Source: Candidatus Tayloriibacteriota bacterium
Lineage (GTDB): Bacteria > Patescibacteriota > Minisyncoccia > Phycocordibacterales > PALSA-1337
Length of the DNA: 64,000 nucleotides
Reading direction: 5' to 3'
NCBI GenBank assembly: GCA_037130865.1
Contig: JBAXSG010000002.1
Span: 8,066 to 72,065 of the forward strand
In this document: one piece after another, positions 7,648 to 28,238 of the stretch
Numbering within the stretch: the stretch's first letter is position 1
Layout of the letters: every line of letters starts with the position of its first letter
Made by a program: the position numbers and the translations under genes
The notes under the pieces: generated by a model
Seen by the model: only the letters and a program-made list of their open reading frames with translations
What the model was told of the DNA's origin: nothing
Databases searched by the model: none

Positions 7648-7656
7648 AAAAACTAA

Positions 7657-8373
7657 ATGATTGAAGTAAAAAATATCACAAAGACATATAAAAATGGTGA
7701 TAATGAGACCCATGCTCTTTGCGGCGTCTCGTTCACGATCGACGATGGAGAGTTTGTGGCCATCATGGGTCCTTCAGGATCTGGAAAATCTACACTCATG
7801 CATATTCTTGGGGCTCTAGATACACCAACATCTGGTACATATCACTTGGATAAGCACGATGTTTCAAAACTCTCAGATGACGAACTGGCAGACATACGCC
7901 GCAATCGTATCGGTTTTGTATTCCAGTCATTTAACTTGCTCCCGCGAGCCACGGCTCTACGTAATGTCATGCTTCCTCTTATATATTCCGAAATACCAGA
8001 GAAAGAAAGACTAAAACAGGCTCGAGCTTCCCTTTCTAGTGCTGGATTAGATGAAGATCGATACAACCATAAGTCAAATCAACTCTCTGGTGGACAGATA
8101 CAACGTGTGGCTATTGCACGCGCTCTCGTAAATAATCCGTCACTTATCCTGGCAGACGAACCTACTGGAAACTTAGACTCGCATACAGGAGATATTGTGC
8201 TTGGGACATTTCAACATCTAAACAAAGAGCTCAAGAGAACTATAGTGCTTATAACTCATGAGCGGGAAGTTGCTGAACATGCCGATAGAATTATTTACAT
8301 AAAAGATGGACTTATTGTTGAAGACGGTAGTGGTCATGATAAGAGAATAATAAATCAAGGAAAAAGAAAATAA
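7657..8373 (+). CDS. ABC transporter ATP-binding protein (MacB/LolD-type)
   Basis: Walker [10 protein letters not shown], signature [15 protein letters not shown], Walker [14 protein letters not shown]-loop ITHE. Confidence 0.9.
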
Positions 8374-9599
8374 TGACTACAAAAGATATATTACATGAAA
8401 CATTTTCAGCACTAACTGCCAACAAAGTGCGCACCTCTCTTACTATGCTTGGAATAATCATAGGTATCAGTTCTGTCATAATAATGGTGGCTATTGGTCA
8501 AGGCGCACAAGGATCTATTCAGGCCAATATTCAATCCCTGGGCTCAAATCTGATAGTCATAATGCCTGGAGCACAAAGATCTCTCGGATATGGAGCATCT
8601 GGAGGACGCGGAAATTCTCAGACTCTCACTCCAGCGGATGCTACAGCAATATCCAGCCAAATAGCCAATATCGCAGAAGTATCTCCGGAAGTTTCTGGAC
8701 GATATCAAGTCACCGCAAAAGGTACTAACACAAATACTACTGTAAATGGGGTCACAGCTGCTTATGCTGGTGTTCACAATATACAAGTCAATGATGGTAA
8801 TTTCATCACCGATGCAGATGGCAAAAATCTCTCCAGAGTCGCTGTCATCGGTCCAACCACTGCCAACGATCTCTTCGCTACTGGTACAGAGCCTGTCGGT
8901 CAGACAATAGCGATAAAGGGAATGCCCTTCACAGTTATCGGTGTGACTGTTTCAAAAGGTTCAAGTGGATTTAGTAATCAAGACGATGCCATTTATATAC
9001 CCCTACAAGATGCGCAGTTATTCTTGCTCGGAAAAACAACTTATCTGAACACATTGAGCATATCAGCGACTTCACCGGATGTTATGACTCAATTACAAAA
9101 TGACATAACTACCCTACTCTTGGAAAGACATGGAATCAGTGATCCTACAGCCGCTGACTTCAATGTTATGAACCAAGCCTCCATAGTCTCCGCAGCATCC
9201 AGCGTCACTAGTACATTTACCATGTTGCTCGCGGCCGTCGCCGGAATATCGCTAGTCGTCGGCGGTATCGGCATCATGAATATGATGCTCACCACAGTCA
9301 CCGAACGCACTCGTGAGATCGGCTTACGCAAAGCTATCGGTGCCAAGCGTCATGATATAAATATACAATTCCTAACAGAAGCTGTGATACTTACCGTCAT
9401 TGGCGGTGCCATAGGAGTTCTACTCGGTTGGAGTGCCGCTTACGCTGTCACCGCGCTCGGCATATTGCAAGCGTCTATTTCCCTCTCCTCGGTATTGCTC
9501 GCCTTCGGAGTTTCGGCAGCCATAGGTATAGTCTTCGGTTATTATCCTGCTCGTCGTGCATCCAGATTGAATCCGATAGAAGCGCTGAGGTATGAGTAA
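8373..9599 (+). CDS. ABC transporter permease, FtsX/MacB-like
   Basis: MacB periplasmic domain plus C-terminal FtsX-like 4-TM region (GIMNMMLTTVTERTREIGLRKAIGA). Confidence 0.9.
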   Translation: MTTKDILHETFSALTANKVRTSLTMLGIIIGISSVIIMVAIGQGAQGSIQANIQSLGSNLIVIMPGAQRSLGYGASGGRGNSQTLTPADATAISSQIANIAEVSPEVSGRYQVTAKGTNTNTTVNGVTAAYAGVHNIQVNDGNFITDADGKNLSRVAVIGPTTANDLFATGTEPVGQTIAIKGMPFTVIGVTVSKGSSGFSNQDDAIYIPLQDAQLFLLGKTTYLNTLSISATSPDVMTQLQNDITTLLLERHGISDPTAADFNVMNQASIVSAASSVTSTFTMLLAAVAGISLVVGGIGIMNMMLTTVTERTREIGLRKAIGAKRHDINIQFLTEAVILTVIGGAIGVLLGWSAAYAVTALGILQASISLSSVLLAFGVSAAIGIVFGYYPARRASRLNPIEALRYE

Positions 9600-13276: not shown

Positions 13277-14941
13277 TTATCTATTCGTGATGTGATCAAA
13301 AGCATATCTTAGCGTCCCTCCGACTTTTTTGCCAGGGTTAAATATACCCTTCGGATCCCATATCTTTTTTACTTGTTCAAACAAACTGTAGACTTCTTCG
13401 CCGTATTGCATTTTGACGAAAGGTGTACGGATGATACCGTCATTGTGCTCACCTGTTATGGAGCCGCCGAACTTATGAACTAGCTTATAGACGCGAACGG
13501 ATAGCTCTTCGATTATCTTATGAGATTTTGGATTATGTAGATCCATAAGTGGAATGATGTGGAAATTACCATCGCCAACATGTCCAGCTATAGTATAAGT
13601 CAATCTGTATTGATCCAAAATATCATAAAGTTGTGGCAAAAATTCCGTAAGATGTTCTGGTTTGACTACAAAATCATCTATGAAAGGCGCTGTGCGTAGT
13701 TTACTTGCATGTTTGCGTAACATATTGAAGCTCTCACGACGAATCACCCAGTATTTATTGGTAGCAGCGGCAGATCTAGTCACTTCAGTGCTCATACCCA
13801 TAGCCCTGATAGCTTTCTCGGCCTGCTCAGCAGCATATACGGCTCCTTGCGGTGTATCAGAGGTGAACTCCGCCATAAGGACCATTTTCGGCACACCGCC
13901 GCGTATAACTGCCCACAGCTCAGGTAGAAAACTGATAGCCAGACGAAATATATTGCCCTTTAGTTGTCCAATTAGAGAAGGTAGAAATTTCACCGCCACT
14001 CGAAATGTGTGGTCGTCATAGGACTCGAAACTCTCTGGTCTGAACTTCATTATCTCTGCAGCTACGTGGCCTAGACTCTTCATATCCTTCAAGAAAACAA
14101 CTAGAAGTCTAGAATGTGGCTTCGGCTTTATAAGAGCAAACTCTATCTCTGTCACTAAACCCAATGTCCCCTGTGAGCCGACAATCATCTTTGTTAGATC
14201 AAAAATCTTTTCAGTACCGCTTCCTCCTAGTGCTGGTCGATCATACATGACATTCCAGAGATAATACCCGCACGAATTCTTCGAAACAGTCGGACGAGCT
14301 TTTTGTATAATATCGTAATTCGTATCTATAAGTTCATGCATCTTGCGATATATCTCGCTCTGTATATTCGGAAATTTCTTCTGTTGTTCCAATTCTTGAA
14401 GTGTTAGTGGTCTGAATTCATATTCTTTACCATCTGCCAAAACTACTTTCAGTCGACGAATATACTTCTCAGTCTTACCGTAAGTGAGCGTCTTTTCTCC
14501 ACCGGAATTATTGGCAACCATACCACCAACCGTGCAAATCTCACGCGAAGCTGGATAACTTGGAAGTATTTGACCACCGTGAGCAACGGTCGCTTTATCG
14601 AAATCTCGATAGTACACTCCGGGTTCGACGATAGCATAACCATCTCCAACTTCTTTTATATGATTGAAATATTTATTAAAATCTACTATGACCGATTGGC
14701 CAAGTGGTCCACCACTCATATCTGTACCAGCTGAGCGAGCAGTAATATTCATCGAACCTGCCAGAGAATGATCACTGACATACTGCACAAGTTTACTGAG
14801 AATATTAACATCTTTAGGCTGAGCCAATGCTTCTGGTTTCACTTCAAATATGCTCGCATCATGCGATACATTGAAAAGTGTCTGTGGAAATATATCAATC
14901 TCACATCCAGTGAGCTCTCTTATCTCTTTAGCATTGATCAC
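13277..14941 (-). CDS. FAD-linked oxidase (GlcD/D-lactate dehydrogenase-like; FAD_binding_4 + C-terminal oxidase domain)
   Basis: N-terminal PCMH-type FAD-binding region (SAGTDMSGG...), about 550 aa, typical of D-2-hydroxyacid dehydrogenases / alkyl-DHAP synthase-like proteins. Confidence 0.75.
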   Translation of the reverse strand: MINAKEIRELTGCEIDIFPQTLFNVSHDASIFEVKPEALAQPKDVNILSKLVQYVSDHSLAGSMNITARSAGTDMSGGPLGQSVIVDFNKYFNHIKEVGDGYAIVEPGVYYRDFDKATVAHGGQILPSYPASREICTVGGMVANNSGGEKTLTYGKTEKYIRRLKVVLADGKEYEFRPLTLQELEQQKKFPNIQSEIYRKMHELIDTNYDIIQKARPTVSKNSCGYYLWNVMYDRPALGGSGTEKIFDLTKMIVGSQGTLGLVTEIEFALIKPKPHSRLLVVFLKDMKSLGHVAAEIMKFRPESFESYDDHTFRVAVKFLPSLIGQLKGNIFRLAISFLPELWAVIRGGVPKMVLMAEFTSDTPQGAVYAAEQAEKAIRAMGMSTEVTRSAAATNKYWVIRRESFNMLRKHASKLRTAPFIDDFVVKPEHLTEFLPQLYDILDQYRLTYTIAGHVGDGNFHIIPLMDLHNPKSHKIIEELSVRVYKLVHKFGGSITGEHNDGIIRTPFVKMQYGEEVYSLFEQVKKIWDPKGIFNPGKKVGGTLRYAFDHITNR

Positions 14942-14956
14942 GTTTGTATTATAGAC

Positions 14957-16852
14957 TTACTTACGACCAGCGCGCAATGCATTGATTATAGGTATGAAGT
15001 CTGTCAAGAAATTGTAAGTAGCAGCACCGGCTGGACCAAGCAGTCCTAGTCCTGGTATGCCGACAGTCACCCAGACCAACCCGAAAGCATTTGTAATACC
15101 CCATATCCAGAAACTGGCAACCATAACACGGCGGACTTTCTGTGCCATAGATATTATCTCCGGGACCCGATCTATATGATCCTTCATGATTGTGACATCG
15201 GATGCTTCTATCGCCGCATCAGCACCTATACCACCCATGGCGATGGAGACATCGGCTAGAGCTAAACTAGCAGCATCATTTACACCGTCTCCAATATACG
15301 CGACTGTACTCTTGGTAGAACTGTGTTCTTTCTCAAATTTGCGAATAAAGTCAACCTTACCTTCTGGTGTTAGATCTGAATGATAATGTCTAAGATTCAA
15401 TTCACGGGCTATAAGTGAGGCTGCCTGGCTATTGTCTCCGGTCAGCATATGCCATTCTAGTACACCAACTTTTTTAGTGTCGGTAATTATAGTTGTAGCC
15501 TGTGGACGAAGTTCATCAACATATGAAAGCAGTCCGACAACTTCCCCATTTATTGAGAGGCAAACTATACCACGGCCAGAATCTTTCTCTGTCTGAATAT
15601 CTTTCTTGACTACTGCAGAAATACGCGAACCACGCGCCTCCATGAAAGATGCGCGACCCATCAACATAGCTTCACCGTCATGACTAAAAGATATTCCTTG
15701 TCCTGGTATCTCTTCTAACTCATCCGGCAGATGCGGCTTGATACTATAAGCAACGGCATATTCCATGATTGCGCGCGAGACGGCATGTCTAGACTCGGCG
15801 GCACCACCGACAAACCTCTTGGCTATCTCTTCGCGAGTCCAGAGACCGTACATCTTCACATCCACCACCTTTGGCTTACCGCGAGTAAGTGTCCCCGTCT
15901 TGTCCGTGAGTATATACTTAACCTTAGAAAGCTGTTCGAAAGCGCTGGACCCTTTCACTATAACTCCACGCCTAGCCGCATAAGCAATAGCTGCTGTATA
16001 AGCTAGTGGTACTGCCACCGCAATATCATCGGCACAGACGACCAATAAAATAGAGAGAATTATCTTCGGGTGTATGCCATATATATACATGCCTATAGAC
16101 AAAACTAAGGATATGACTATATACCACTGCGTAAATCTATCAGCAGCCAGTTCAGATTGATTCTTATCTCGACTTGCCTCTTCGACCAAAGAAACCATTC
16201 GTGCAAGAGTAGTATCTGCACCAACTCTTTCTGTCTTTACAATAAGCGATCCGGATTCATTCATTGTCGAAGTGAAGACCTTGTCACCATTCTTCTTCGG
16301 CACAAGTTCGCTCTCACCAGTCAGAGTTGATTCATCTACTTCGGCTATACCAGACATCACAATTCCATCCACCGGGATACGATCGCCAGATTCTACCAAG
16401 ACAAGGTCACCTGTTCTGACTTGGCTTATATGTACTTCTTTTACGGTGTCACCGATACGGATTCGTACTGATTCCACATGATATTTCATAAGACTCTGGA
16501 TCGTCTTCTTGGCTCTAGCTTGAGTGATTTGATCGAATACACGAGCAAAGGCCAGCATCAGAGTGATAAATGCCGCGGAAGACCATTCATGAGATATAAG
16601 AGAAAAAGCTAGAGCTATAGTAGCTAGCATGTCTACAGATATTTTCTTTTTTACAAGAGTCTTCAGAGCACTTATAGCTACAGGTATTATTCCGAAAAAT
16701 GCCAGCGCTGCCATAACCTGATGAAGCCATGGTGTTGTAGAGAAAATTTCTGATATAAGAAGAGATCCTGTTGATACGATCAGAATAATATCAAAAGTCA
16801 TAAAGAACTTTTCTTCAAATTGAGCTAGGGTTGGAAAGTGTTTCGATGACAT
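14957..16852 (-). CDS. P-type ATPase, P1B-like (heavy-metal pump architecture: 4 TM before the actuator domain, no N-terminal metal-binding domain)
   Basis: DKTGTLT phosphorylation motif, GDGVNDA, TGES actuator motif. The TM metal-site position reads CAD(D) instead of CPC/CPx. Confidence 0.8.
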   Translation of the reverse strand: MSSKHFPTLAQFEEKFFMTFDIILIVSTGSLLISEIFSTTPWLHQVMAALAFFGIIPVAISALKTLVKKKISVDMLATIALAFSLISHEWSSAAFITLMLAFARVFDQITQARAKKTIQSLMKYHVESVRIRIGDTVKEVHISQVRTGDLVLVESGDRIPVDGIVMSGIAEVDESTLTGESELVPKKNGDKVFTSTMNESGSLIVKTERVGADTTLARMVSLVEEASRDKNQSELAADRFTQWYIVISLVLSIGMYIYGIHPKIILSILLVVCADDIAVAVPLAYTAAIAYAARRGVIVKGSSAFEQLSKVKYILTDKTGTLTRGKPKVVDVKMYGLWTREEIAKRFVGGAAESRHAVSRAIMEYAVAYSIKPHLPDELEEIPGQGISFSHDGEAMLMGRASFMEARGSRISAVVKKDIQTEKDSGRGIVCLSINGEVVGLLSYVDELRPQATTIITDTKKVGVLEWHMLTGDNSQAASLIARELNLRHYHSDLTPEGKVDFIRKFEKEHSSTKSTVAYIGDGVNDAASLALADVSIAMGGIGADAAIEASDVTIMKDHIDRVPEIISMAQKVRRVMVASFWIWGITNAFGLVWVTVGIPGLGLLGPAGAATYNFLTDFIPIINALRAGRK

Positions 16853-18124
16853 TTAATTTAGCTTTGTTATATCCCTTGGAAAAAATAATTGGAGCGTCCA
16901 CTCGAACATTATGCGCAAGCGTTTTTTCAATGAAGCAAACTTCGATAGATATGTAGTGCGCCATATCCACCATGCAAAACGACCTTTTATGATGCGATTG
17001 AATACTTCACCAACAGCAAACCATTTACCGACAGAGACCAAACTACCATGCGACTTATACGAAAAGGTCTTGAGTGTTTTTTGATTTATAGATGCCATAA
17101 TATTGTCCGATACAATATCAGCTTGTTGAACAGCCACTTGTGCTAACATCGGTTGAACACCAGCCGTATCACCAAGAGCAAAGACGCGCTCGTCATTGTT
17201 TACACGAAGAAAACTATCTGTATCCAGTCTGCCGTTTGTGGACATAGTCGATCCAGCATTGGCCAGACCATCACTACCAATAAAATCCAGTGTTATGGAT
17301 TTTACTCCAGCAGCCCAAATCACAGTAGAGGTAGGTATAGTGTCAGCAACAGAACCGGTGGTCAATGAAAGTGTGTGTGAGGTGACATTGATTACTCTGG
17401 CATCGAGACGGACATCAACACCTTTCGCTTTTATATGATCGAGTACAGACTTACGCAGGACTGGACTAAATTGTTGTACAAGTTCCGCGCCAGCATGTAT
17501 GAGAGTGATCTTGACTTCATTTCTATCAAAAAGGTTACTGTCAAAATAATAACGATCTACAATACCATGCACAAATTCTGTGAGTTCAGCGACAGTTTCT
17601 ACTCCAGTCGGACCACCTCCAACCACAACAAAAGATAGGAGCTGGGCACGTTCGATCGGATCATCACACATCACAGACTCTTCAAAACAATCTATGATAT
17701 GTGTGCGAATATTTACAGCATCACTTAGACTTTTCAGTGGTAAACAATATTTCTCTGCTCCTGGTATACCGTAATAATTCGTCTCGGCCCCAGTTGCGAT
17801 CACTAGATAATCATAAGGTAATGTATGTTGTGAACCAATACTAGACATATGGACTCTATGCTCTCCAAGGTCTACTGATTTGACGATCCCCTGACAAAGA
17901 GCTATGCCAGTACCAGCGAAAACTTCACGAAGCGGTTCAGCAACACTTGTAGGACTGAGCGAACCAGTGGCCACTTCATGCAAAAGTGGTGTAAACAAAA
18001 AATAATTGGTCTTATTTACGATAGTGACATCTATAAGTCCTGCTTTGACATGCTTAGCAAGCTTCTTGGCAACATAAGTACCACCAAATCCAGCGCCAAG
18101 TATAACTACATGAGGTTTAAGCAT
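16853..18124 (-). CDS. ndh: type II NADH dehydrogenase-like FAD/NAD(P)-binding oxidoreductase (NDH-2 family)
   Basis: Two Rossmann GxGxxG motifs (VVILGAGFGGTYVAKKL; VVVGGGPTGVETVAEL) and C-terminal amphipathic/membrane-associating region; about 420 aa. Confidence 0.8.
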   Translation of the reverse strand: MLKPHVVILGAGFGGTYVAKKLAKHVKAGLIDVTIVNKTNYFLFTPLLHEVATGSLSPTSVAEPLREVFAGTGIALCQGIVKSVDLGEHRVHMSSIGSQHTLPYDYLVIATGAETNYYGIPGAEKYCLPLKSLSDAVNIRTHIIDCFEESVMCDDPIERAQLLSFVVVGGGPTGVETVAELTEFVHGIVDRYYFDSNLFDRNEVKITLIHAGAELVQQFSPVLRKSVLDHIKAKGVDVRLDARVINVTSHTLSLTTGSVADTIPTSTVIWAAGVKSITLDFIGSDGLANAGSTMSTNGRLDTDSFLRVNNDERVFALGDTAGVQPMLAQVAVQQADIVSDNIMASINQKTLKTFSYKSHGSLVSVGKWFAVGEVFNRIIKGRFAWWIWRTTYLSKFASLKKRLRIMFEWTLQLFFPRDITKLN

Positions 18125-18151: not shown

Positions 18152-18907
18152 TTATAATCCCGCCAAACGGATTGCTCCAAACAAAACTGCTACACCTACC
18201 AATGTCATAAGAGTGGTTAGAAATTTCGGATGAGCATGTTGACTCTCTGGTATAAGATCGCTAGCTCCAATGTATAGGAAAAATCCAGCAAACAAAGCAA
18301 GGATGATACTGAGTCCTTGTTCTGGAACCCTGAAGAAGAGTGTCGCCACAACACCCAAAACTGGCGCGATAGCATCTGCTATAAGCCAACGAAAAGCGTG
18401 CTTGGAACCATTCCTCAAAATCATATTCACTGTGTTTATACCATCAGAGAAGTCATGTACCAAGACGGCCACTGCGACAATAGAACCGATAGCTGTCGAG
18501 ACTTGAAAAGCTAGACCAATAGCCACACCATCCAAGAAACTGTGTAGACATAAACTACCAGCACCTAGTATTCCACGCGAATGTTTATTCTCAACATGAT
18601 TAATCTCCACATGACCACTGTCATGTTCGCTTGAATGATCATGAAAATGCAAAAAGATGAGTCGATCGAGTAAGAGATATATTATAAAACCCAGCGCTGT
18701 TATCTCCAGTATTGTATTGTTTGAGAAATATTTGCTACCAAGATCTAGTGATTCCGGAATCAGATCGAAGAATGCTACAGCAATTACCGCACCAGCTGAA
18801 AAACCTAGAATAAGGTGCAGCTTGTCTTTCAATTTGAGAGCAAAAAGTCCACCAAGGAGCGTGGCAAAAAATGTAGCTATTGAGATTAAGATAATTGTAC
18901 TATTCAT
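18152..18907 (-). CDS. ZIP family metal (Zn/Fe) transporter
   Basis: Eight TM segments, His-rich loop (HDHSSEHDSGHVEINHVENKH), conserved HSFLDGVAIG motif. Confidence 0.85.
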   Translation of the reverse strand: MNSTIILISIATFFATLLGGLFALKLKDKLHLILGFSAGAVIAVAFFDLIPESLDLGSKYFSNNTILEITALGFIIYLLLDRLIFLHFHDHSSEHDSGHVEINHVENKHSRGILGAGSLCLHSFLDGVAIGLAFQVSTAIGSIVAVAVLVHDFSDGINTVNMILRNGSKHAFRWLIADAIAPVLGVVATLFFRVPEQGLSIILALFAGFFLYIGASDLIPESQHAHPKFLTTLMTLVGVAVLFGAIRLAGL

Positions 18908-20144
18908 ATCGTAATGCCTCTATCGGACTCTTCTTCGAAGCCTTACTAGCCGGATAACCACCAAATATCAATCCGATCAAAGCTGAGACTCCAAAGCCGA
19001 GTCCAGCACCTCCCCATGGAAATATGAACTGCCAGTTAACACCCAAGCCCTTCGACAAAATCAAAGCAATTATGAATGCCAGCGATGAACCTAGAATAAT
19101 GCCTATGATACCACCGAGAATTGTCAGCATAACCGCTTCTATCAAGAACTGCCACAATATATCTCCATCTGTAGCACCAAGCGCCTTGCGTAGTCCGATC
19201 TCGCGGGTTCTCTCTGTTACCGCGACGAGCATTATATTCATGATGCCGACACCACCAACAAATAGCGCAATAGAAGCCACAGCAACAAGAAACCAAGTCA
19301 AAGCTCCGGTTATAGTCGATAGACGATTGGCTAGATCCTGTTGTGTTTGTACCGTAAAGTCCTCTTTCGTCGAATCGGTTATTCCGTGCGAGTCACGCAA
19401 TGTCATACGTATATCATCTGCCGTCACGGTAACTGCCGCATCGGAAACTGCCTGGACAATGATACGTTGAAAATACTTTATACCTAGCAGATAATTCTGC
19501 GCTGTTGTATATGGGACGATAGCCATGCTGTCGAAGTTGAAGAGAGATCCCCCACCAGAAGGCGGTAATGCTGCAACAATCTTGAAGTTACGTCCTTTGA
19601 TCTTTATTTTCTGACCAACAGGATCCGCGTCAGCGTTGTCGAAGAGATGCTCAACAACTTTCGAACCAATGACCACAACATCATTGCTTGAGACTACATC
19701 ATCTTGTGTGAAGAAGGATCCATATTTAGGATTCAAGTCAAATATACTGGCCATGAGATCCGTAGCTCCAAATATACTAACCTGGTATGTATTGGCTTCA
19801 AATGAAGCTATATCAGCACCCAAGACTGTCGGCATTATGGACTTTAGGCCTGGGACATTGGCCTTATTCTGCAATGCCACAAGATCCTTCGGCTTCAAGG
19901 AATCACCATATAGTTGTGCAGAGTCGGATGGTCCAGTCGGTTCGCGACCAGGTATGATGGCTATTGTATTTGTGCCGAGACCTTGAACCTGTCCCAAAAT
20001 AAGATCTTGCGCACCAGCACCAAGCGACACCACCAACATGATAGCTGTGATACCTATCACAATACCTAGAACAGTCAGAAAAGATCGTGAACGATTTGTA
20101 GTAAGTCCCGTCAATGCTGTTTTCATTCTGTGGCGTAATGTCAT
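18900..20144 (-). CDS. ABC transporter permease, FtsX/MacB-like (second copy)
   Basis: Paralogue of 8373..9599 with the same C-terminal GIMNIMLVAVTERTREIGLRKALGA region. Confidence 0.9.
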   Translation of the reverse strand: MTLRHRMKTALTGLTTNRSRSFLTVLGIVIGITAIMLVVSLGAGAQDLILGQVQGLGTNTIAIIPGREPTGPSDSAQLYGDSLKPKDLVALQNKANVPGLKSIMPTVLGADIASFEANTYQVSIFGATDLMASIFDLNPKYGSFFTQDDVVSSNDVVVIGSKVVEHLFDNADADPVGQKIKIKGRNFKIVAALPPSGGGSLFNFDSMAIVPYTTAQNYLLGIKYFQRIIVQAVSDAAVTVTADDIRMTLRDSHGITDSTKEDFTVQTQQDLANRLSTITGALTWFLVAVASIALFVGGVGIMNIMLVAVTERTREIGLRKALGATDGDILWQFLIEAVMLTILGGIIGIILGSSLAFIIALILSKGLGVNWQFIFPWGGAGLGFGVSALIGLIFGGYPASKASKKSPIEALRYE

Positions 20145-20165
20145 ATTCTTTGATAATTATCTGCT

Positions 20166-20885
20166 TTATTTAACATATTCAGCATTTATAGACATGCGAT
20201 TCTTCACCAACTGATCACTTTCTATAATACCGTCCATGAGTCGTATTATACGCTCAGCATGTTCGGCGGTGGATGTCTCGTGAGTTATGAGCACAATGGT
20301 TCTACCTTCTTCTTCATTTAGTTTTTGGAGGATAGACATGACATTTTTACCAGACTTAGAATCAAGGTTTCCTGTCGGCTCATCTGCAAATATAATGTCT
20401 GGGTTATTTATAAGTGACCGCGCTATGGCTAGACGCTGTTTTTCTCCACCAGAAAGCTCTGAGGGTTGATGATTCATACGGTGTCCAAGACCGACTGCTT
20501 CCACTACTTTCTTGGCTCGTTCATCCCATTCATTTTCTGGAACATCTGAATATACGAGTGGAAGTTTAGCGTTCTCCAGAACAGATGTGCGAGGCAAGAG
20601 ATTGAAAGCTTGAAATACGAAGCCAACTTTCCTGTTGCGTAGAGCAGCAAGTTCGTCACGAGAATAAGAACCAATATCTTTTCCGTCGAAAATAAATTTT
20701 CCACTGGTTGGATCATCGAGCATACCCAATACATGTAGAAGTGTAGATTTTCCAGATCCGGAAGGACCCATTATTGCCAAGAACTCGCCACGACGCACAG
20801 AAAAACTCACCCCATCCAAGGCTTTTGTATCAGTCTCACCATCATGATAAGACTTCTTCAGATTTTTTACTTCTATAATGTTCAT
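20166..20885 (-). CDS. ABC transporter ATP-binding protein (second MacB-type ATPase)
   Basis: [40 protein letters not shown]. Confidence 0.9.
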   Translation of the reverse strand: MNIIEVKNLKKSYHDGETDTKALDGVSFSVRRGEFLAIMGPSGSGKSTLLHVLGMLDDPTSGKFIFDGKDIGSYSRDELAALRNRKVGFVFQAFNLLPRTSVLENAKLPLVYSDVPENEWDERAKKVVEAVGLGHRMNHQPSELSGGEKQRLAIARSLINNPDIIFADEPTGNLDSKSGKNVMSILQKLNEEEGRTIVLITHETSTAEHAERIIRLMDGIIESDQLVKNRMSINAEYVK

Positions 20886-20909
20886 AATAAACCAGTAAAT
20901 TGTCTCGAC

Positions 20910-22424
20910 CTACTTTATGTAAGTCACAACCTTATCACCGGCTACAATACCAGATACGATTTCTGTTGTTCCATTTGAACCCTTCAAGCCCAAGACGACA
21001 TTTACTGCCTTATAGGTTTTTCCATCTTTGTTCATGACGCGTACAGACCTAGTTCCATCGCTATTTATGATAATAGCTCTGGTCGGAACATACAGAACGC
21101 CGTTATGTCTATGAGTCAATATATCAGTATTGGCCGTCATGCCAGAACGAATACGGTCATCTGCTTTAGTAAATTGCAAAGTTACTTTGTAGGTTGGCAC
21201 ACCTTCAAGCATGGTTTCAGCTGGATCTATAAATGTAACCTTAGCGCCAAATATTGTATCTGAACCATAAGCATCCAATGTCACCTCGGCAGTATCACCG
21301 ACTGTGGTCTTAGCTATATCTGCTTCTGGAACATATGCTTCTATCTTATATAAACCTTCACTCTGAACTGCAAAGCCAGCCATTCCAGGAGTAGTATATT
21401 CACCTTCATGAGGATCTGCGCGAGTGACAATACCGTCTATAGGAGAATAAATACGGCCTTTTGAAACAACTGCACTCAAAGAATCAACTGTCGCTTGTTG
21501 TGCGCGGATAGATTCAGAAGACACGCCAGAATTCTTCAGGACGAAACTGTTGTAAACCTCATCATAGCCAGTCTGTGCTTGGTCCAATCCTGCCTTGGCA
21601 GTAGAAACAGATGAGACTGCTTGATTCAATGTACTAAGACCAGTATTCATAATAGCTATATAAGAATCGATGGTCGTCTGAGATAGACTGGAATTGCCTG
21701 GATTCAGATCATTTACAATAACAGACAAATTATCCATAAATATTTTAATACTAGACATAGACTTATCAGCATCACTTAATGCCGATAATGCACTACCTGT
21801 GCTCGAAGAAATCTCTAGACCCGTCTTCCATGTCCTGAAATAATCACTAACCAAAAGACGATTGGAATCTATAGCTTGTTTGTCTGTATCGGATTGTGTA
21901 CGAATGTTTATTGTTGGGTTGGCTGATTGAGGATTCTTAAAAAAATTATCAGCGTAATTTACAACCGCACTTTGTGCTAAGACATAACCACTACTTACAG
22001 CATTTACGGCATTTACTTTTGCATTATTGAGAGCTGCACTGGCGGAATCAACTCTAGCTTTTTCCAACTGGAGTTCTTCTGGGCGTAGAGAACGAGTAAT
22101 ATCGTCCAGTTTCGCTTGAGCAGATGCCAAAGAAGCAACCGCATCGGCATTATCCAAAGAAGCTAGCAGATCCCCCTTTTTTACTTTGTCTCCGACTTTT
22201 ACAAAAATGTGTGCTATGGAACCACTGGAACCAAAAGATAGGTCGGCCTTGTCAACTGGAGATATTTTTCCGGTCACACCAACTTTCTCTATCACATCAC
22301 CAATAGTAGCGACTGAAGATTCAATAGTCGTGGCCGAACCACCTCGTAATAACAAGTAAGCTATAAAAATAACCAAAACAGAAGTCACAGCTATCACATA
22401 TTTATTTTTGAAAAAGTGTTTCAT
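20910..22424 (-). CDS. efflux periplasmic adaptor (HlyD-like, second copy)
   Basis: N-terminal TM plus lipoyl-like hairpin (KVGDKVKKGDLLASLD). It sits upstream of the ATPase and permease in the same orientation. Confidence 0.8.
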   Translation of the reverse strand: MKHFFKNKYVIAVTSVLVIFIAYLLLRGGSATTIESSVATIGDVIEKVGVTGKISPVDKADLSFGSSGSIAHIFVKVGDKVKKGDLLASLDNADAVASLASAQAKLDDITRSLRPEELQLEKARVDSASAALNNAKVNAVNAVSSGYVLAQSAVVNYADNFFKNPQSANPTINIRTQSDTDKQAIDSNRLLVSDYFRTWKTGLEISSSTGSALSALSDADKSMSSIKIFMDNLSVIVNDLNPGNSSLSQTTIDSYIAIMNTGLSTLNQAVSSVSTAKAGLDQAQTGYDEVYNSFVLKNSGVSSESIRAQQATVDSLSAVVSKGRIYSPIDGIVTRADPHEGEYTTPGMAGFAVQSEGLYKIEAYVPEADIAKTTVGDTAEVTLDAYGSDTIFGAKVTFIDPAETMLEGVPTYKVTLQFTKADDRIRSGMTANTDILTHRHNGVLYVPTRAIIINSDGTRSVRVMNKDGKTYKAVNVVLGLKGSNGTTEIVSGIVAGDKVVTYIK

Positions 22425-22436
22425 ATTTTATAAAAA

Positions 22437-23090
22437 TTATTTAGATTCCGTCGCGATGATAGAATCTTTTGCCATATCCGTCGCGTTCTTAGCACCACCC
22501 TCTACCACTTGAACACCTATTCGTTTTTGCAACATGACCCTGACCTCTTCAGCCAAATCTGTATCTATAGGATCAAATATTGTATCTGTGCCATCTTTAC
22601 TACTACTGTTGCTATGACCAGCAGTTGCAAGTACTAGACGGCTCACACCGAAAAACTGATATATGAGTGGCTTGGTAATATCGACATTTTGAATCTGACG
22701 ATAAGGTATAGACACTTCTTTTATATCGAATATTCCTCGTCTTAATTTAAGGTCGAATTCTTCCATAGTAAATGTATAGTTGCGGTGCTCTATGCGAGCG
22801 ATTATATAGCCAATGATGAACCAAAGAACACCTATCGCCAAAGTGATAACTGCCAGAAGAGAAACAACGGATGAGACAATATGATCCGAAGATATATTGC
22901 CATTAGAAAGAAATGTAAAATATCCTGACAGACCTTGACCTATAAAATCTTTCGCCGAGCCTAAGATAACAGCAAGGAGCATCAGAACTGCGGCTGTCGT
23001 CGTCTTCTTGGACAAAAGCAGTAACCAGGTCCTACGGCCTAGATTTTGCTCTACATTTGGAATAATCATGCAAACATTATAACACTTCAA
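22437..23090 (-). CDS. membrane protein with bacterial PH (bPH_2/YdbS-like) domain
   Basis: Two TM helices followed by an RRGIFDIKEVSIPYRQIQNVDI segment typical of the membrane-flanked bPH_2 domain. Confidence 0.55.
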   Translation of the reverse strand: MKCYNVCMIIPNVEQNLGRRTWLLLLSKKTTTAAVLMLLAVILGSAKDFIGQGLSGYFTFLSNGNISSDHIVSSVVSLLAVITLAIGVLWFIIGYIIARIEHRNYTFTMEEFDLKLRRGIFDIKEVSIPYRQIQNVDITKPLIYQFFGVSRLVLATAGHSNSSSKDGTDTIFDPIDTDLAEEVRVMLQKRIGVQVVEGGAKNATDMAKDSIIATESK

Positions 23091-23956
23091 GATACAAAAA
23101 TCTCATCAGAAAAATACTCCGATTTCTCAAGCGACATATCATCACGGATAATCATATATTCAAATTCATAAACACCCTTAAATAGATCTGCTGGCACAAA
23201 AAACAAACAAGTGGCAAGTGCGTCAGCCAAAAGTGCTGTCTTGGCTGAAACCCAAACCGCTTTGATGTCTTTCGGTGAAGTCAGTGTCTTCGGGTTTATG
23301 ATATGTGTAAAGTCTCCCCATTTACGACGATTCCCAGCTGAACCACAAATAGCACCATTGCCAAGTAAATAGACCCCAACTACCTGATCTTTGTTGTCTG
23401 GATGTTCAAGACCTATGCGGATAGAATCGCTACCCCTACGAAGAATATCTCCGCCAGCATCTATGCAGTAGCCAAAGATGTCATTATCTTGCAGGACATG
23501 GCCAATCAAATCGATGATATATCCCTTCCCTGCCGCTCCGAAATCCAACATGACCGGCTCCTTCACTAAAAGTTTAGGATGTTTATAATCAAGCACATCA
23601 TCCCATGCTGGTGGTGCTTTCAGTTCTCCGGTCTGTTGCAAAGAATATTTCGCATCATAACCAGCATCCGATAGAAGTCGTCCTGCGAGTGGTGTAAAAA
23701 ATCCACCAGTTCGGATATATAAATCATGGTACAAAGAAAGCATAGTCTCCGCATCTCGAGGCAATAAGAAAGTTCCAGCTTCTTTTGAAATCTTGGTGAC
23801 CAGAGAATCATCACGAAAACGCGAATATACTTTTTCGAAATCCTCTATGCGTAGTTTTATCTTCGACAAGAGATCTGCTTCTTCGGCTTTATCTAGGTCT
23901 CTATATATATCTATATGCCATGTCGTACCTACTGCTTTGAAGTCAAATTGCACCAT
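23087..23956 (-). CDS. apbE: FAD:protein FMN transferase (ApbE family)
   Basis: ApbE-like length and motifs (FDFKAVGTTWHI..., DFGAAGKGY, AGGD). No obvious signal peptide or lipobox. Confidence 0.7.
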   Translation of the reverse strand: MVQFDFKAVGTTWHIDIYRDLDKAEEADLLSKIKLRIEDFEKVYSRFRDDSLVTKISKEAGTFLLPRDAETMLSLYHDLYIRTGGFFTPLAGRLLSDAGYDAKYSLQQTGELKAPPAWDDVLDYKHPKLLVKEPVMLDFGAAGKGYIIDLIGHVLQDNDIFGYCIDAGGDILRRGSDSIRIGLEHPDNKDQVVGVYLLGNGAICGSAGNRRKWGDFTHIINPKTLTSPKDIKAVWVSAKTALLADALATCLFFVPADLFKGVYEFEYMIIRDDMSLEKSEYFSDEIFVS

Positions 23957-23977
23957 ATAAAATAATGCTTGTGCGTA

Positions 23978-24541
23978 TTAAGCTTTTGCTTGTGCTTTTA
24001 TTTGAGAGAGGGCGTTATTGAAACCAATCGGAGTCAATGAGGAACCAGAAATTCTTGTCAGGTTTAAAGTCGAGATGTCTTGACCGACAACATATGACTG
24101 ATAACCAGAGAGGAATCTGCTTATGTATTTCTGTGAAGTACGATCTGCTGATTGTACAGTAACAGATGCAGAAGTGACGATATCGTTAGCAATAGTCAAT
24201 GTAACCAATAATTGGTCCTGTCCACCTGGAGACATGTATGATCCATTGGCAGAATAGGTGCCGTTTTTATAAGCATAAACAGATTTCTTCGTAATAGCAG
24301 GTGGTGGTGTCGTAGAGACGACTGGTTTATTGACAACTGCAGGTGTGTTCACTACCCCTCCATCCTCATCACTCTCTTCAGAATCTCCATAAGAAACCTG
24401 TAAAGGGGTTGTTGGTGCTGAGACTGGTGGTGTAACAGATTTTGAATGATTTCCAAATAATATCGTCGACCCTATCACTCCTACAATGACTACAACGCTA
24501 ATAGCTATACCTATATTTTTTTGAGAAATTCCTTGTTCCAT
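23978..24541 (-). CDS. FMN-binding domain protein with N-terminal membrane anchor and Pro/Thr-rich stalk (predicted flavinylation substrate)
   Basis: FMN_bind-like C-terminal domain (YKNGTYSANGSY...LTRISGSSLTPIGFNNALSQ) with an [ST]G[AS][ST] flavinylation-type motif. Signal-anchor TM then a PTTP/TTPPP linker. Confidence 0.7.
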   Translation of the reverse strand: MEQGISQKNIGIAISVVVIVGVIGSTILFGNHSKSVTPPVSAPTTPLQVSYGDSEESDEDGGVVNTPAVVNKPVVSTTPPPAITKKSVYAYKNGTYSANGSYMSPGGQDQLLVTLTIANDIVTSASVTVQSADRTSQKYISRFLSGYQSYVVGQDISTLNLTRISGSSLTPIGFNNALSQIKAQAKA

Positions 24542-24951
24542 TATCTTAAATAATTAATCTGATTCTGTTTTCTTTGTATGCAAAGCAGATCAGGTCCATT
24601 CATAAATACCACAAAAGTTGCTACTGCCAAGCCGAGATCACGAACGCCAATCTCTCCATATCCAACGACCCACATGATATCAAAGAGATGTAGGGATAAC
24701 AAAAGAGCTGCTAGTCTTGTCTGCCAACCAAAGAGAAGCATCAGACCGAAGACTAACTCAAACAATGCATTGAAATAAACCAGGACAGTAGCGTCCATAT
24801 GTGATATAGATACAATCGAATCTGGAACAAATGCTGTCCATGCACTAGCATTTATGAGTTGCTGAAGACTAAACCACAAGATTACAGCTACCATACCGTA
24901 ACGAAGCACACTCGGACTGTATAGTTCAATGAATGAAATGAATTTTTGCAT
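24541..24951 (-). CDS. DoxX-family membrane protein
   Basis: About 135 aa, 4 TM, DoxX-like hydrophobic pattern. First gene of the minus-strand array. Confidence 0.55.
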   Translation of the reverse strand: MQKFISFIELYSPSVLRYGMVAVILWFSLQQLINASAWTAFVPDSIVSISHMDATVLVYFNALFELVFGLMLLFGWQTRLAALLLSLHLFDIMWVVGYGEIGVRDLGLAVATFVVFMNGPDLLCIQRKQNQINYLR

Positions 24952-25063
24952 ATATTTATTGTACCATATATGTACGAGTGTATCGGAAAATTTGGTGCGC
25001 CACTACCTTGTATTGTGGGGTTTTTTGCGATATTCTGCATGATGTTAGTCAGTAGTCTGTAAA

Positions 25064-25183
25064 TTGCGGGATCATGTACGGTTCTCTTAAAATACAACAT
25101 TGCGGGATCATGTACGGTTCTCTTAAAATACAACATTGCGGGATCATGTACGGTTCTCTTAAAATACAACATTGCGGGATCAT
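25064..25183 (+). repeat. perfect tandem direct repeat, 3 x 36 bp plus a 12-bp partial 4th copy that is the 5' end of tRNA-Gln
   Basis: Unit ttgcgggatcatgtacggttctcttaaaatacaaca at 25064, 25100 and 25136. Each unit contains TTGCGG-18 nt-TAAAAT (promoter-like -35/-10) and the first 12 nt of the tRNA. Confidence 0.9.
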
Positions 25184-25243
25184 CTAATGGTAGGATGCGA
25201 CTCTCTGAAAGTCGTCATCTTGGTTCGAATCCAAGTCCCGCAG
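25173..25243 (+). tRNA. tRNA-Gln (anticodon CTG)
   Basis: Manual fold: acceptor tgcggga/tcccgca (U1:A72) with G73 discriminator (bacterial Gln identity), 3-bp D stem, anticodon stem cgact/agtcg, loop ctCTGaa, T arm cttgg-ttcgaat-ccaag. CCA not encoded. Confidence 0.85.
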
Positions 25244-26630
25244 CTATTTCGTTCGGAACAAACTCAAAATTTCCCGACGACAACGTTCGCTCGCCCAGCC
25301 CCGCTTGTGGCGGGGCTGGGCTCGCATTTGCGGCGGCTTCGCCGCCGTTCTGGGGCAAAATGAAGCGGAATTTAATCGTTTCGGGCGAGTAAAAAATGTT
25401 TGAAAGAAATTTTTTAGCAAAAAGATTTCTTTCAATTCCTTTTGTTTTTTTGATTCCGTCAACGAAAAATTTTAGAGTGCGTGTGAGGTTTTCGGCGGAA
25501 AATTTAGAGCATTCGTCTGTTAGTTCGTGTCCTTCTCGGTGTCCAGCATTTGTGTCGTTGTTTAATCGGAAAACAAGATTTTCGATATAGTTTTTATCCA
25601 CCAAAATTCGTTCTAAATTTTCCAAACAAAAATTTTCCAATCGTTCGGCGGACACTTGTTTTACGGGACAAGTTTGCCAATCAAATTTAGTCGTAGAAGT
25701 GCAACGATAATAATAATATCGGCGGTTAAATTTTCCGTTTGTGTGTTTGTTGCTAAAACTCGCGCTCATACTTGAGCCACAACTTTCACATTTTATCAGT
25801 CCGCCGAAAAGAAAATTTTTGTAAACTCTAAAATTTTTCAGTTTTTCCTTATGGATTTTTTGAGCAAGAGCAAAAATTTCTTCTGAAATTATTGGCTCGT
25901 GTATTCCTTGATAAATTTCGCTATTATGTTTAACTTTTCCGATATAAACTGGATTTCGTAAAAGGTAAGCAATAATCGTTTTTGAGAAATTTTTGCCATA
26001 CTTACTTTTTATGCCTTGCTTCTTTAAATTTTTGTAGGTTTCTGCCAACGAGCCAGTTTCAACATAAGTTTCAAAAATTGATTTTATTTCCTTTGCTTCT
26101 TTCGGATTGACGACAATTTTTTTGTTTTCTCGCGAATATCCATAAGGAGTAAAACCGCCATTGCACAAACCTTTTTTAGCTCGCTCTAACATTTTATCTC
26201 TGGTTCTTTCACTTGTCAGCTCTCGCTCAAACTGCGAAAAAGTAAGCATTATATTTCGCAAAAGCCGACCTGCTGGTGTAGAAGTGTCGAATCTTTCCGT
26301 AATGGAAATAAAATCAATTTTTGCTTGCTCAAAAAGTTCAATCAGTTGGTAAAAATCTTTCGGCGAACGAGTGAGCCGATCAATTTTATAAACCAAAACC
26401 ACATCAATTTTTTCTTTTTTCAAATCCGAAAGCAACTCCTGAATTTTAGGTCGTTGCAGGGTTGCCCCTGAAAATCCAGCGTCATTGTAAATTTTGAAAA
26501 CTTGCCAATTATTTTGGCTGGCGATAAACGAGCGAATTTTTTGCTCTTGGGCTTCGCAAGACGAAAATTCTTTTTCCGCTTGCATATCAGTTGAAACACG
26601 AGTATAAACTGCGCAATTTTTTGTTTGCAT
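25215..26630 (-). CDS. large serine recombinase (resolvase/invertase catalytic domain + recombinase domain + zinc ribbon/coiled-coil)
   Basis: N-terminal AVYTRVSTDMQ (catalytic Ser), ...DRLTRS..., recombinase domain, zinc ribbon CESCGS...YYRCTS...C. As encoded, the C-terminal about 58 codons lie in the left inverted repeat and the last 8 in tRNA-Gln, so the true C-terminus is uncertain. Confidence 0.85.
   Translation of the reverse strand: MQTKNCAVYTRVSTDMQAEKEFSSCEAQEQKIRSFIASQNNWQVFKIYNDAGFSGATLQRPKIQELLSDLKKEKIDVVLVYKIDRLTRSPKDFYQLIELFEQAKIDFISITERFDTSTPAGRLLRNIMLTFSQFERELTSERTRDKMLERAKKGLCNGGFTPYGYSRENKKIVVNPKEAKEIKSIFETYVETGSLAETYKNLKKQGIKSKYGKNFSKTIIAYLLRNPVYIGKVKHNSEIYQGIHEPIISEEIFALAQKIHKEKLKNFRVYKNFLFGGLIKCESCGSSMSASFSNKHTNGKFNRRYYYYRCTSTTKFDWQTCPVKQVSAERLENFCLENLERILVDKNYIENLVFRLNNDTNAGHREGHELTDECSKFSAENLTRTLKFFVDGIKKTKGIERNLFAKKFLSNIFYSPETIKFRFILPQNGGEAAANASPAPPQAGLGERTLSSGNFEFVPNEIAAGLGFEPR
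25240..25392. repeat. 153-bp terminal inverted repeat (left copy), GC-rich, overlapping the last 4 nt of tRNA-Gln
   Basis: Perfect reverse-complement match to 26792..26944. It contains an internal palindrome gcccagccccgc-ttgt-ggcggggctgggc. Confidence 0.9.
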
Positions 26631-26791
26631 ATTTTTTTAACCAAAAGGGCAACCCTGTCGCACCAACCGTGAAGCACACGATTGAACAGAAGTTGCCCGT
26701 CTGGTGATACAATTTTATTTATTATATCAAAACGGTGCTTCAATTTGGTTGGTGCAATTTCATTATACCAAAGATTTGAAAAAAGAAAAAA

Positions 26792-26944
26792 TTACTCGCC
26801 CGAAACGATTAAATTCCGCTTCATTTTGCCCCAGAACGGCGGCGAAGCCGCCGCAAATGCGAGCCCAGCCCCGCCACAAGCGGGGCTGGGCGAGCGAACG
26901 TTGTCGTCGGGAAATTTTGAGTTTGTTCCGAACGAAATAGCTGC
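26792..26944. repeat. 153-bp terminal inverted repeat (right copy)
   Basis: Reverse complement of 25240..25392, identical over its full length. The ORF 26682..26951 is its mirror-frame artefact. Confidence 0.9.
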
Positions 26945-27842: not shown

Positions 27843-28238
27843 ATGAAAGCTTATGACTGGTATAAATCTCTTTTGAAACCGAGCTGGGCGCCACCATCTT
27901 GGCTTTTTGGACCTGTGTGGTCAGTCTTATATATACTCATTGCAGCATCCTATGGATATGTGGTCTATCTGTATTTCACGAAAAAAATTTCATTCATTAT
28001 CTTGTTGCCATTCATTCTGAATATAATCTTCAACCTAATTTTTACCTCAATACAATTCGGCTTAAAAAATAATTTTCTAGCTGGAGTAGACATCCTTTTG
28101 GTACTTGGTACCCTAATCTGGGCACTCATTGCCATCTATCCTTATGCAAAATGGGTTACTTTTATCAATACTCCATACCTACTCTGGGTCTGCTTTGCAA
28201 CTTTTCTCCAACTCACAATCACTTTCCTAAATATGTAA
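27843..28238 (+). CDS. tspO: TspO/MBR family tryptophan-rich sensory protein
   Basis: WYKSLLKPSWAPPSWLFGPVWSVLY signature, 5 TM, about 130 aa. Confidence 0.85.
   Translation: MKAYDWYKSLLKPSWAPPSWLFGPVWSVLYILIAASYGYVVYLYFTKKISFIILLPFILNIIFNLIFTSIQFGLKNNFLAGVDILLVLGTLIWALIAIYPYAKWVTFINTPYLLWVCFATFLQLTITFLNM

Follow-up and report, generated by a model that had tools for sequence, protein, structure and literature searches.

A three-gene DoxX, FMN-binding protein and ApbE set, conserved across Candidate Phyla Radiation bacteria, that probably conveys electrons to the cell surface

Does a genome-reduced, supposedly fermentative bacterium belonging to the Candidate Phyla Radiation (CPR) possess a route of its own for moving electrons out of the cell? 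The question is raised by a locus in a 64,000-nucleotide (nt) stretch of DNA from a Candidatus Tayloriibacteriota bacterium (contig JBAXSG010000002.1; the whole stretch is referred to here as the window), in which four adjacent open reading frames (ORFs) of the minus strand had been interpreted as a cassette for flavin-based extracytosolic electron transfer. The original prediction comprised a DoxX-family membrane protein, an FMN-binding protein (hereafter FMNb), an ApbE-family FAD:protein FMN transferase and a bPH membrane protein, with a type II NADH dehydrogenase (NDH-2) and an FAD-linked oxidase (FAD-oxidase) further along the same gene array. All four ORFs of the cassette were found where they had been placed. 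Comparison with related loci supports DoxX, FMNb and ApbE, judged from their sequences, as a genuine module that belongs with the systems for flavinylation-based extracytosolic electron transfer, a three-gene set that is conserved across thousands of ultra-small CPR bacteria and probably delivers electrons to the surface of the cell.

The first gene of the set (24541..24951, minus strand) encodes a 136-amino acid (aa) membrane protein with about four transmembrane (TM) helices, and its assignment to DoxX holds (Pfam PF07681, 36.3 bits, the cut-off being 23.6). The stop codon of this gene shares bases with the start codon of FMNb in the sequence TAATG. FMNb (23978..24541, minus strand; 187 aa), a divergent FMN_bind protein recognized through hidden Markov model (HMM) matches of its family members, an AlphaFold2 (AF2) model and Foldseek, consists of a TM helix at residues ~10–28, a Thr/Pro/Ser-rich stalk at ~29–88 and an FMN_bind-like domain at ~89–187. 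It is followed after 21 nt by the gene for the 289-aa ApbE (23087..23956, minus strand; PF02424), which has no signal peptide. The sequence of FMNb is 100% identical to that of a hypothetical protein from a Candidatus Taylorbacteria metagenome-assembled genome. Promoter and terminator scans of the cassette gave the same result as shuffled controls.

To delineate the conserved part of this arrangement, 80 labeled genome loci were fetched out of 370 confirmed matches and scanned with the window proteins; counts refer to the 81 non-duplicate loci of the 83 fetched, with flanks of ±6 kb where the contig allows. ApbE adjoins FMNb in 78 of the 81 loci (two of the exceptions, L008 and L078, end just past FMNb), and DoxX directly flanks the FMNb–ApbE pair in 49, upstream in ~30 of them and downstream in 19. 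Where DoxX is missing, 23 loci encode, right after ApbE, a ~500-aa fusion of an NqrB/RnfD-like membrane domain with FAD_binding_6 and NAD_binding_1 domains (RnfD-FNR), and in L035 (7187–8548) a third type of partner combines Ferric_reduct (NOX/Fre-type heme), FAD_binding_8 and NAD_binding_1. DoxX and RnfD-FNR were never found together (0 of 81 loci), and the type of partner follows ApbE similarity, with 56 of 71 nearest neighbors sharing it. Unbiased clustering of all neighboring ORFs in these loci yielded no further family that recurs beyond clade synteny, and no reductase, iron-uptake or other terminal component linked to the cluster. The conserved unit is FMNb, ApbE and one membrane partner.

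DoxX is also found in one polypeptide with FMNb. Two natural fusions, P0375 (295 aa; L031, 5407–6291) and P0377 (281 aa), which are 45% identical and come from two CPR lineages, each combine the four TM helices of DoxX with the anchor helix of FMNb, a stalk and the FMN_bind domain. Taken together, mutual exclusivity of the partners and these fusions assign DoxX to the position that the membrane partner for electron transfer occupies. Thus, the interpretation of the locus as a flavin-based extracytosolic electron-transfer-like module is supported by the FMNb–ApbE adjacency, the DoxX linkage, the fusions and the exclusivity of partners. The accompanying idea that the module might be an oddity of a single reduced genome did not hold: FMNb relatives comprise 280 matches in a 90%-clustered database and, in a scan with the family HMM, 2,574 clusters at 50% identity (E≤1e-10), and the examined loci are almost all labeled Patescibacteria/CPR. 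A few Third Party Annotation (TPA) bins with an FMNb–ApbE(–RnfD-FNR) cluster (L058, L067, L069, L070, L079 and L080) are labeled ‘uncultured Gammaproteobacteria’; these labels are probably wrong, the cluster being otherwise CPR-specific.

How secure is the FMN_bind identity of FMNb? The original prediction was prepared to abandon it should an HMM search fail, and for the 187-aa protein the search literally fails, with no match in Pfam or NCBIfam and FMN_bind absent even at E≤10; the assignment nevertheless stands on family HMM matches, the AF2 model and fold matches. When 33 family members were sampled, 17 matched PF04205 individually (best E=2e-5); among the 120 homologs listed, none carries a precomputed Pfam domain, and some homologs are labeled “FMN-binding domain” by JGI. 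The AF2 model of residues ~90–187 is a three-stranded sheet with helices (block-mean pLDDT 74–97, mostly ~90+), for which the top Foldseek matches by probability are FMN-binding domains, with weak E-values of 7e-3 or worse: SaFMN3 domain 2 is the best (8p2a, prob 1.00, TMt 0.65), followed by CPE2226 (3o6u, prob 1.00), RnfG (8rb8_G) and NqrC (3lwx). A search of the family profile against PDB sequences was discarded, since all it gave were spurious matches to amyloid precursor, made through the TM helix.

Some relatives of FMNb are considerably longer. P0127 (L084, 3250–7125) is a 1,005-aa protein of the multi-flavinylated type with seven FMN_bind-like repeats; a leaderless ApbE of 284 aa is encoded directly after it, and an HI0933-like flavoprotein gene adjoins; P0151 (440 aa) contains three such repeats.

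The ISGSSLT motif that had been singled out in FMNb was confirmed as a strongly conserved element. It contains the predicted flavinylation site S165-G-S-S168-L-T170 (24032..24049, minus strand), in which S165, S168, L169 and T170 are invariant in a 33-sequence alignment; the family consensus is V-S-G-S-S-L-T-P, and the frequencies across 279 motif instances are S 99%, G 100%, S 85%/A 15%, acceptor S 99%, L 98% and T 100%. The core [S/T]-G-x-[S/T] is invariant in the family, in the form S-G-S/A-S, and the S-G-S-S of FMNb aligns with the [S/T]-G-A-[S/T] of the canonical ApbE motif, which makes Ser168 the predicted FMN acceptor; covalent flavinylation of this residue is deduced from the alignment. 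Given the variant site together with the family and fold evidence, FMNb is, by sequence and model, a divergent FMN_bind subfamily that is invisible to Pfam-based surveys.

The assignment of ApbE is straightforward. The protein matches PF02424 (E=6.1e-38, 131 bits, cut-off 25.6) and, in phmmer, the solved ApbE structures 1vrm, 4xgw and 2o18; among 79 sequences, the signature D138, G143-K144-G145, D149, A167/G169/D170 (AGGD) and S206 is conserved in at least 95%, and so are R210, R211, H218, A244-D245 and T249. The FAD/Mg2+-binding and catalytic signature being conserved, ApbE is, as far as its sequence tells, maintained as an active transferase. Like the canonical ApbE/Ftp enzymes (of Vibrio cholerae, Escherichia coli, Treponema pallidum and FmnB of Listeria), it belongs to PF02424, carries the catalytic signature and is encoded beside its substrate; unlike them, the ApbE family of the window has neither a signal peptide nor a lipobox (78 loci), and its target sequence is S-G-S-S with no leading Asp. 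A secretion or lipoprotein signal is typical of characterized extracytosolic ApbEs without strictly defining them.

The lack of a signal peptide in ApbE had been raised as a caveat and was borne out: only 7 open codons precede its ATG. In all 78 loci with ApbE, the open frame 5' of the domain spans 0–48 residues and is never hydrophobic; the leaderless state is therefore a property of the family rather than an annotation error. Read-through that would produce an exported FMNb–ApbE fusion was also considered, the two genes being in frame here and, by eye, in ~30% of loci; this share equals the chance expectation, so the idea was dropped.

On which side of the membrane does the flavin domain reside? 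The N-terminal TM helix and the Pro/Thr-rich stalk of FMNb are present as predicted, and the stalk is 47% T+P+S with a median length of 56 aa across the family. The charge around the anchor averages +0.8 in the N-terminal flank vs. −0.3 in the C-terminal flank, with 76 sequences favoring the N-in/C-out orientation and 23 the reverse, and clear lipoboxes are present in the homologs L071, P0232, P0246 and P0254. The 4+1 TM helices of the DoxX–FMNb fusions, in which the DoxX N-terminus is Lys/Arg-rich, place the flavin domain on the side opposite to the DoxX termini. Placement of the FMN domain outside also fits the alternative partners, which are transmembrane conduits sending electrons outward. 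Counting of TM helices in the RnfD-FNR proteins assigned no side to their N-terminus, the hydropathy segments having merged. Taken together, the charge bias, the T/P/S stalk and the lipobox homologs favor the projection of FMNb outside the cell that had been proposed, so that the FMN_bind domain is predicted to be extracytosolic and, for the lipoprotein homologs, by virtue of their signals, is essentially certain to be.

Among known systems, the module is closest to the ‘NQR/RNF-like’ flavinylation class, which Meheust et al. (2021, PMC8238504) encountered mostly in Actinobacteria and CPR and for which an electron path from cytosolic NAD(P)H to the extracytosolic FMN_bind subunit has been proposed (PMC8238504; Huang et al., 2024, PMC11334425). 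In both cases an ApbE gene lies beside that of a membrane-anchored NqrC/RnfG-like FMN_bind subunit, both occur in CPR, and the FMNb–ApbE pair of the window has its orthologs in the clusters of sister CPR loci. The window, however, encodes no NqrB/RnfD-like subunit with an NAD(P)H/FAD reductase and has DoxX instead, and because the NqrB/RnfD-FNR subunit is absent, its module falls outside the definition of this class. The NOX-like partner of L035 resembles the published MsrQ-like cytochrome class (PMC8238504; PMC11334425), and its domain architecture implies the same path from NAD(P)H to the outside.

The published partner classes are the NapH-, MsrQ-, PepSY-, DsbD- and NQR/RNF-like ones and DUF4405; DoxX is mentioned neither in the two surveys of flavinylation partners nor in the 2025 ApbE review, and our literature search found no paper pairing DoxX with ApbE or with “FMN-binding domain”. 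The DoxX-partnered module thus looks like a variant, not previously described, of a known type of system. DoxX would be a further class of membrane partner for flavinylation systems, and one drawn from a widespread family with almost no assigned biochemistry.

Members of the DoxX/DoxD family include DoxDA of the thiosulfate:quinone oxidoreductase of Acidianus, DoxX of the mycobacterial DoxX–SseA–SodA complex and vertebrate NACHO/TMEM35A. The window protein shares with them the Pfam DoxX domain, and its four-helix fold matches NACHO; in contrast to them, its subfamily is marked by a distinctive set of invariant polar residues within the membrane and is also met as a fusion with FMN_bind. Among 50 cluster-linked DoxX proteins, R17, Q31, N61, E65, R79, H88, D91, R104, D105 and D121 are invariant or nearly so, and the conserved intrahelical residues E65, H88, D91, R104 and D105 suggest a ligand or cofactor site.

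Based on these observations, we propose a mechanism, to which we give an even chance, whereby ApbE flavinylates FMNb and DoxX couples the flavin to a membrane carrier. ApbE would join FMN covalently to Ser168; the N-terminal helix would anchor FMNb, and the flexible Thr/Pro/Ser stalk would display the flavin domain at the outer face of the membrane, where DoxX, as the membrane partner, would exchange electrons with the flavin. The module encodes no cytosolic electron-input domain, so that its donor must differ from that of the NQR/RNF-like systems, quinol being the presumed candidate; DoxX itself has no NAD(P)H-binding domain, which makes a membrane carrier the most likely source of electrons, most plausibly a scavenged quinone/quinol. 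That quinone could be reduced in trans by NDH-2 (16853..18124, minus strand; Pyr_redox_2 + NDH2_C), which has the sequence AQVAVQ, conforming to the AQxAxQ quinone-site motif, and two GxGxxG motifs, and which could thereby feed quinol to DoxX. The result would be a minimal route from quinol (or NADH) to an extracellular acceptor, by which NAD+ might be regenerated in a fermentative, genome-reduced cell. Within this scheme, we infer the covalent flavinylation, electron transfer via DoxX, the quinol donor, the direction of flow and the terminal acceptor. Some CPR genomes encode quinone-dependent enzymes without quinone biosynthesis (PMC8407418; PMC5220378), and in the proteome of Haloferax during Fe(III) reduction one DoxX protein is 12.6-fold up (PMC13104607), which is circumstantial support.

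A more specific version of this mechanism, which we consider improbable, has the leaderless ApbE flavinylating S-G-S-S in the cytoplasm before export, and DoxX acting on the outside as a cofactor-less quinol:flavin oxidoreductase on quinone scavenged from a host. If true, flavinylation before export would be an unprecedented route that spares the cell any FAD export, and, together with NDH-2, the ‘non-respiring’ CPR would gain a minimal electron-disposal chain of two or three proteins.

Several observations weigh against the proposed mechanism of ApbE, FMNb and DoxX. ApbE is leaderless at all loci even though its FMNb substrate is predicted to be outside the cell; three explanations could square the two, namely cytoplasmic flavinylation prior to export, non-classical export of ApbE and an inward-facing flavin domain, the last being the least likely. 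The attachment site departs from the canonical motif D-x-x-[S/T]-G-A-[S/T] (PMC12052999), the Asp at −6 being found in only 11% of the sites and Ala (15%) being mostly replaced by Ser; in mutagenesis of the ApbE motif, the effects of D-to-A changes were minor and Ser acceptors were functional (PMC12052999). As for the electron source, NDH-2 was detected in none of the 83 fetched loci, and neither quinone-biosynthesis genes nor terminal acceptor enzymes were found in the window or the clusters. Neither DoxX nor RnfD-FNR was scored at nine of the 81 loci; of these, L013 is truncated upstream, L035 encodes the NOX-like reductase and the RnfD-like part of L043 is in a fused ORF, which leaves six with no recognizable adjacent membrane partner. 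The AF2 model of a DoxX–FMNb fusion shows confident domains, a disordered stalk and no confident docking (pTM 0.52). The only solved structure that matches the DoxX half is NACHO/TMEM35A (9h9e_B, prob 0.99, TMt 0.63), a four-helix assembly chaperone that is not a redox protein.

These last points lead to the main rival explanation, under which DoxX would be a non-redox membrane scaffold, or an insertion or assembly factor for FMNb, with electrons coming from elsewhere or with the flavoprotein serving in binding or sensing. We regard such a role as possible, on the unlikely side. It would account for the best structural match of DoxX being a chaperone of receptor assembly, for the absence of a recognizable cofactor motif in DoxX and for the six loci devoid of an adjacent membrane partner, and tight coupling and fusion with FMNb are what would be expected of a dedicated chaperone just as well. 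It does not readily account for the fact that DoxX excludes RnfD-FNR and NOX-FNR, two bona fide electron conduits, from the gene slot that they share, an exclusivity that argues for an equivalent function in electron supply, nor for the invariant buried charged residues of the helices, which are more typical of a ligand-binding or catalytic site. Furthermore, relatives of the DoxD/DoxX family are tied to quinone-linked redox reactions, namely the thiosulfate:quinone oxidoreductase and the mycobacterial DoxX complex.

A second alternative retains the redox role of DoxX and turns the entire module toward the cytoplasm, so that the leaderless ApbE would flavinylate an FMN_bind domain at the inner face and DoxX would link this domain to the membrane pool. 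The missing signal peptide of ApbE in all 78 loci would then need no further explanation, and cytoplasmic pairs of ApbE and substrate do exist, for example, that of the Klebsiella fumarate reductase (PMC12052999). In addition, a single 755-aa ORF of L043 (6346–8610) encompasses ApbE, a TM domain of the RnfD-like type and a reductase that binds FAD/NAD, thereby joining ApbE to the N-terminus of an RnfD-FNR protein whose FNR part must be cytosolic; if real, such a fusion is rare and puts ApbE on the cytosolic side. This fusion, however, does not recur among 682 homologs, and the NCBI product on the contig is 441 aa; the ORF was therefore set aside as a topology marker, as a possible frameshift or assembly artifact. 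Given the lipoprotein signals of several FMNb homologs, the charge bias and T/P/S stalk that favor the C-out orientation, and the alternative partners (NOX-type heme and RnfD-like domains) that move electrons across the membrane, we find a cytoplasm-facing module decidedly unlikely and retain the outward-facing one.

The original prediction went further by connecting the cassette to the NDH-2 and the FAD-oxidase of the same array, as in the flavin-based extracellular electron transfer (EET) system of Firmicutes. In Listeria monocytogenes, this system comprises Ndh2, demethylmenaquinone (DMK), EetA/EetB, PplA and FmnB. As in Listeria, there is an ApbE-type transferase, a surface FMN_bind protein (here predicted), small membrane proteins leading to the quinone pool and an NDH-2 in the genome. 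The differences are that the bridging protein is DoxX; that the FMNb of the window carries one FMN_bind domain on a TM anchor, the Listeria substrate being a two-domain lipoprotein; that ApbE has no lipoprotein signal; that NDH-2 lies outside the locus; and that no EetA, EetB or DmkA/DmkB-like genes were found among the scanned proteins of the 64-kb window or the recurrent neighbors. Hence, what the window contains is no minimal version of an EET locus of the Listeria type.

We likewise consider it very unlikely that NDH-2, the FAD-oxidase, DoxX, FMN_bind, ApbE and bPH are co-transcribed as one such system. All these genes are co-oriented on the minus strand within 12 kb, NDH-2 is genuine, and the gene order is kept in the nearest relative; this much of the proposed link stands, as local synteny rather than as an operon. 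NDH-2 is ~5 kb from ApbE, with bPH, a HlyD/YknX-ABC-FtsX efflux set and a ZIP transporter in between, and a P-type ATPase gene stands between NDH-2 and the GlcD/YdiJ-like FAD-oxidase (13277..14941, minus strand; FAD_binding_4 + FAD-oxidase_C). As with NDH-2, the scan of the 83 fetched loci detected no FAD-oxidase; the one other place where NDH-2 was seen is the closest relative, ~8 kb downstream, as clade-level synteny. The bPH_2 membrane protein (22437..23090, minus strand; PF03703, E=1e-11), whose gene overlaps that of ApbE by 4 nt, has to be removed from the cassette as well. It was detected at just one of the 83 fetched loci and is near FMNb–ApbE in the closest relative only (L085/L086), where a zinc-finger gene and a DEAD-box helicase split it from ApbE and where it remains directly upstream of HlyD/YknX-ABC-FtsX genes; therefore, bPH belongs to the efflux module. 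Synteny thus largely refutes the single EET locus.

Finally, it is hardly credible that these genes represent one part of a conventional NQR or RNF complex (NqrC/RnfG + ApbE) with the other subunits encoded elsewhere, since, for all the NqrC/RnfG-like fold of FMNb and the NqrB/RnfD-like subunit in sister loci, NqrA, D, E, F or RnfA, B, C, E are encoded at none of the 81 loci by neighborhood clustering, no genes of a six-subunit operon (NqrA-F or RnfA-E,G) are present in the window, and the RnfD-like partner is of the two-subunit ‘NQR/RNF-like’ type, being itself replaced by DoxX in the window.

The existence of the DoxX-partnered module bears on the general view of CPR bacteria. In the published survey of flavinylation, CPR are “strikingly underrepresented”, the filter having been a Pfam match to FMN_bind or ApbE together with a signal peptide; the FMNb family fails both filters and nonetheless includes ~2,600 clusters at 50% identity, which qualifies the claim of underrepresentation. 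A surface route for electron disposal is a possibility that bears on the interactions of these supposedly fermentative bacteria with hosts, oxygen and metals, and an ApbE without a leader, consistently paired with a substrate that faces outward, poses a tractable paradox in the making of extracytosolic flavoproteins.

Several features of the surrounding DNA deserve mention. Upstream of DoxX, a large serine recombinase with Resolvase, Recombinase and Zn_ribbon_recom domains (25215–26630, minus strand) is flanked by perfect 153-nt inverted repeats (25240–25392 and 26792–26944). The left arm starts within the 3' end of tRNA-Gln(CTG) (25173–25244), the 5' end of which is overlapped by three 36-nt tandem repeats (25063–25186). 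The region 25063–26944 has the appearance of an element, either invertible or integrated, that lies directly upstream of the DoxX operon.

The window also contains two separate HlyD/YknX-ABC-FtsX (MacB-type) efflux modules, at 5980–9599 (plus strand) and 18900–22424 (minus strand), the second of which is preceded by the bPH_2 gene in an arrangement kept in L085/L086. The P-type ATPase (14957–16852; 631 aa) has no N-terminal metal-binding domain, and, by eye, ‘CAD’ replaces the metal-binding CPC motif that the P1B type carries in the TM helix. A P-type ATPase is a recurrent neighbor of the cluster (12 loci) and was rejected as a functional partner, the recurrent protein being ~811 aa, of a different kind by eye, and probably attributable to clade synteny; the ~811-aa form is found in L022, L027, L042, L066, L072 and others, mostly where DoxX is downstream of the pair. 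Both the window (27843–28238) and L085 (7803–8207) have, a few kb away from the DoxX cluster, a gene for a TspO/MBR family protein (porphyrin or tetrapyrrole binding).

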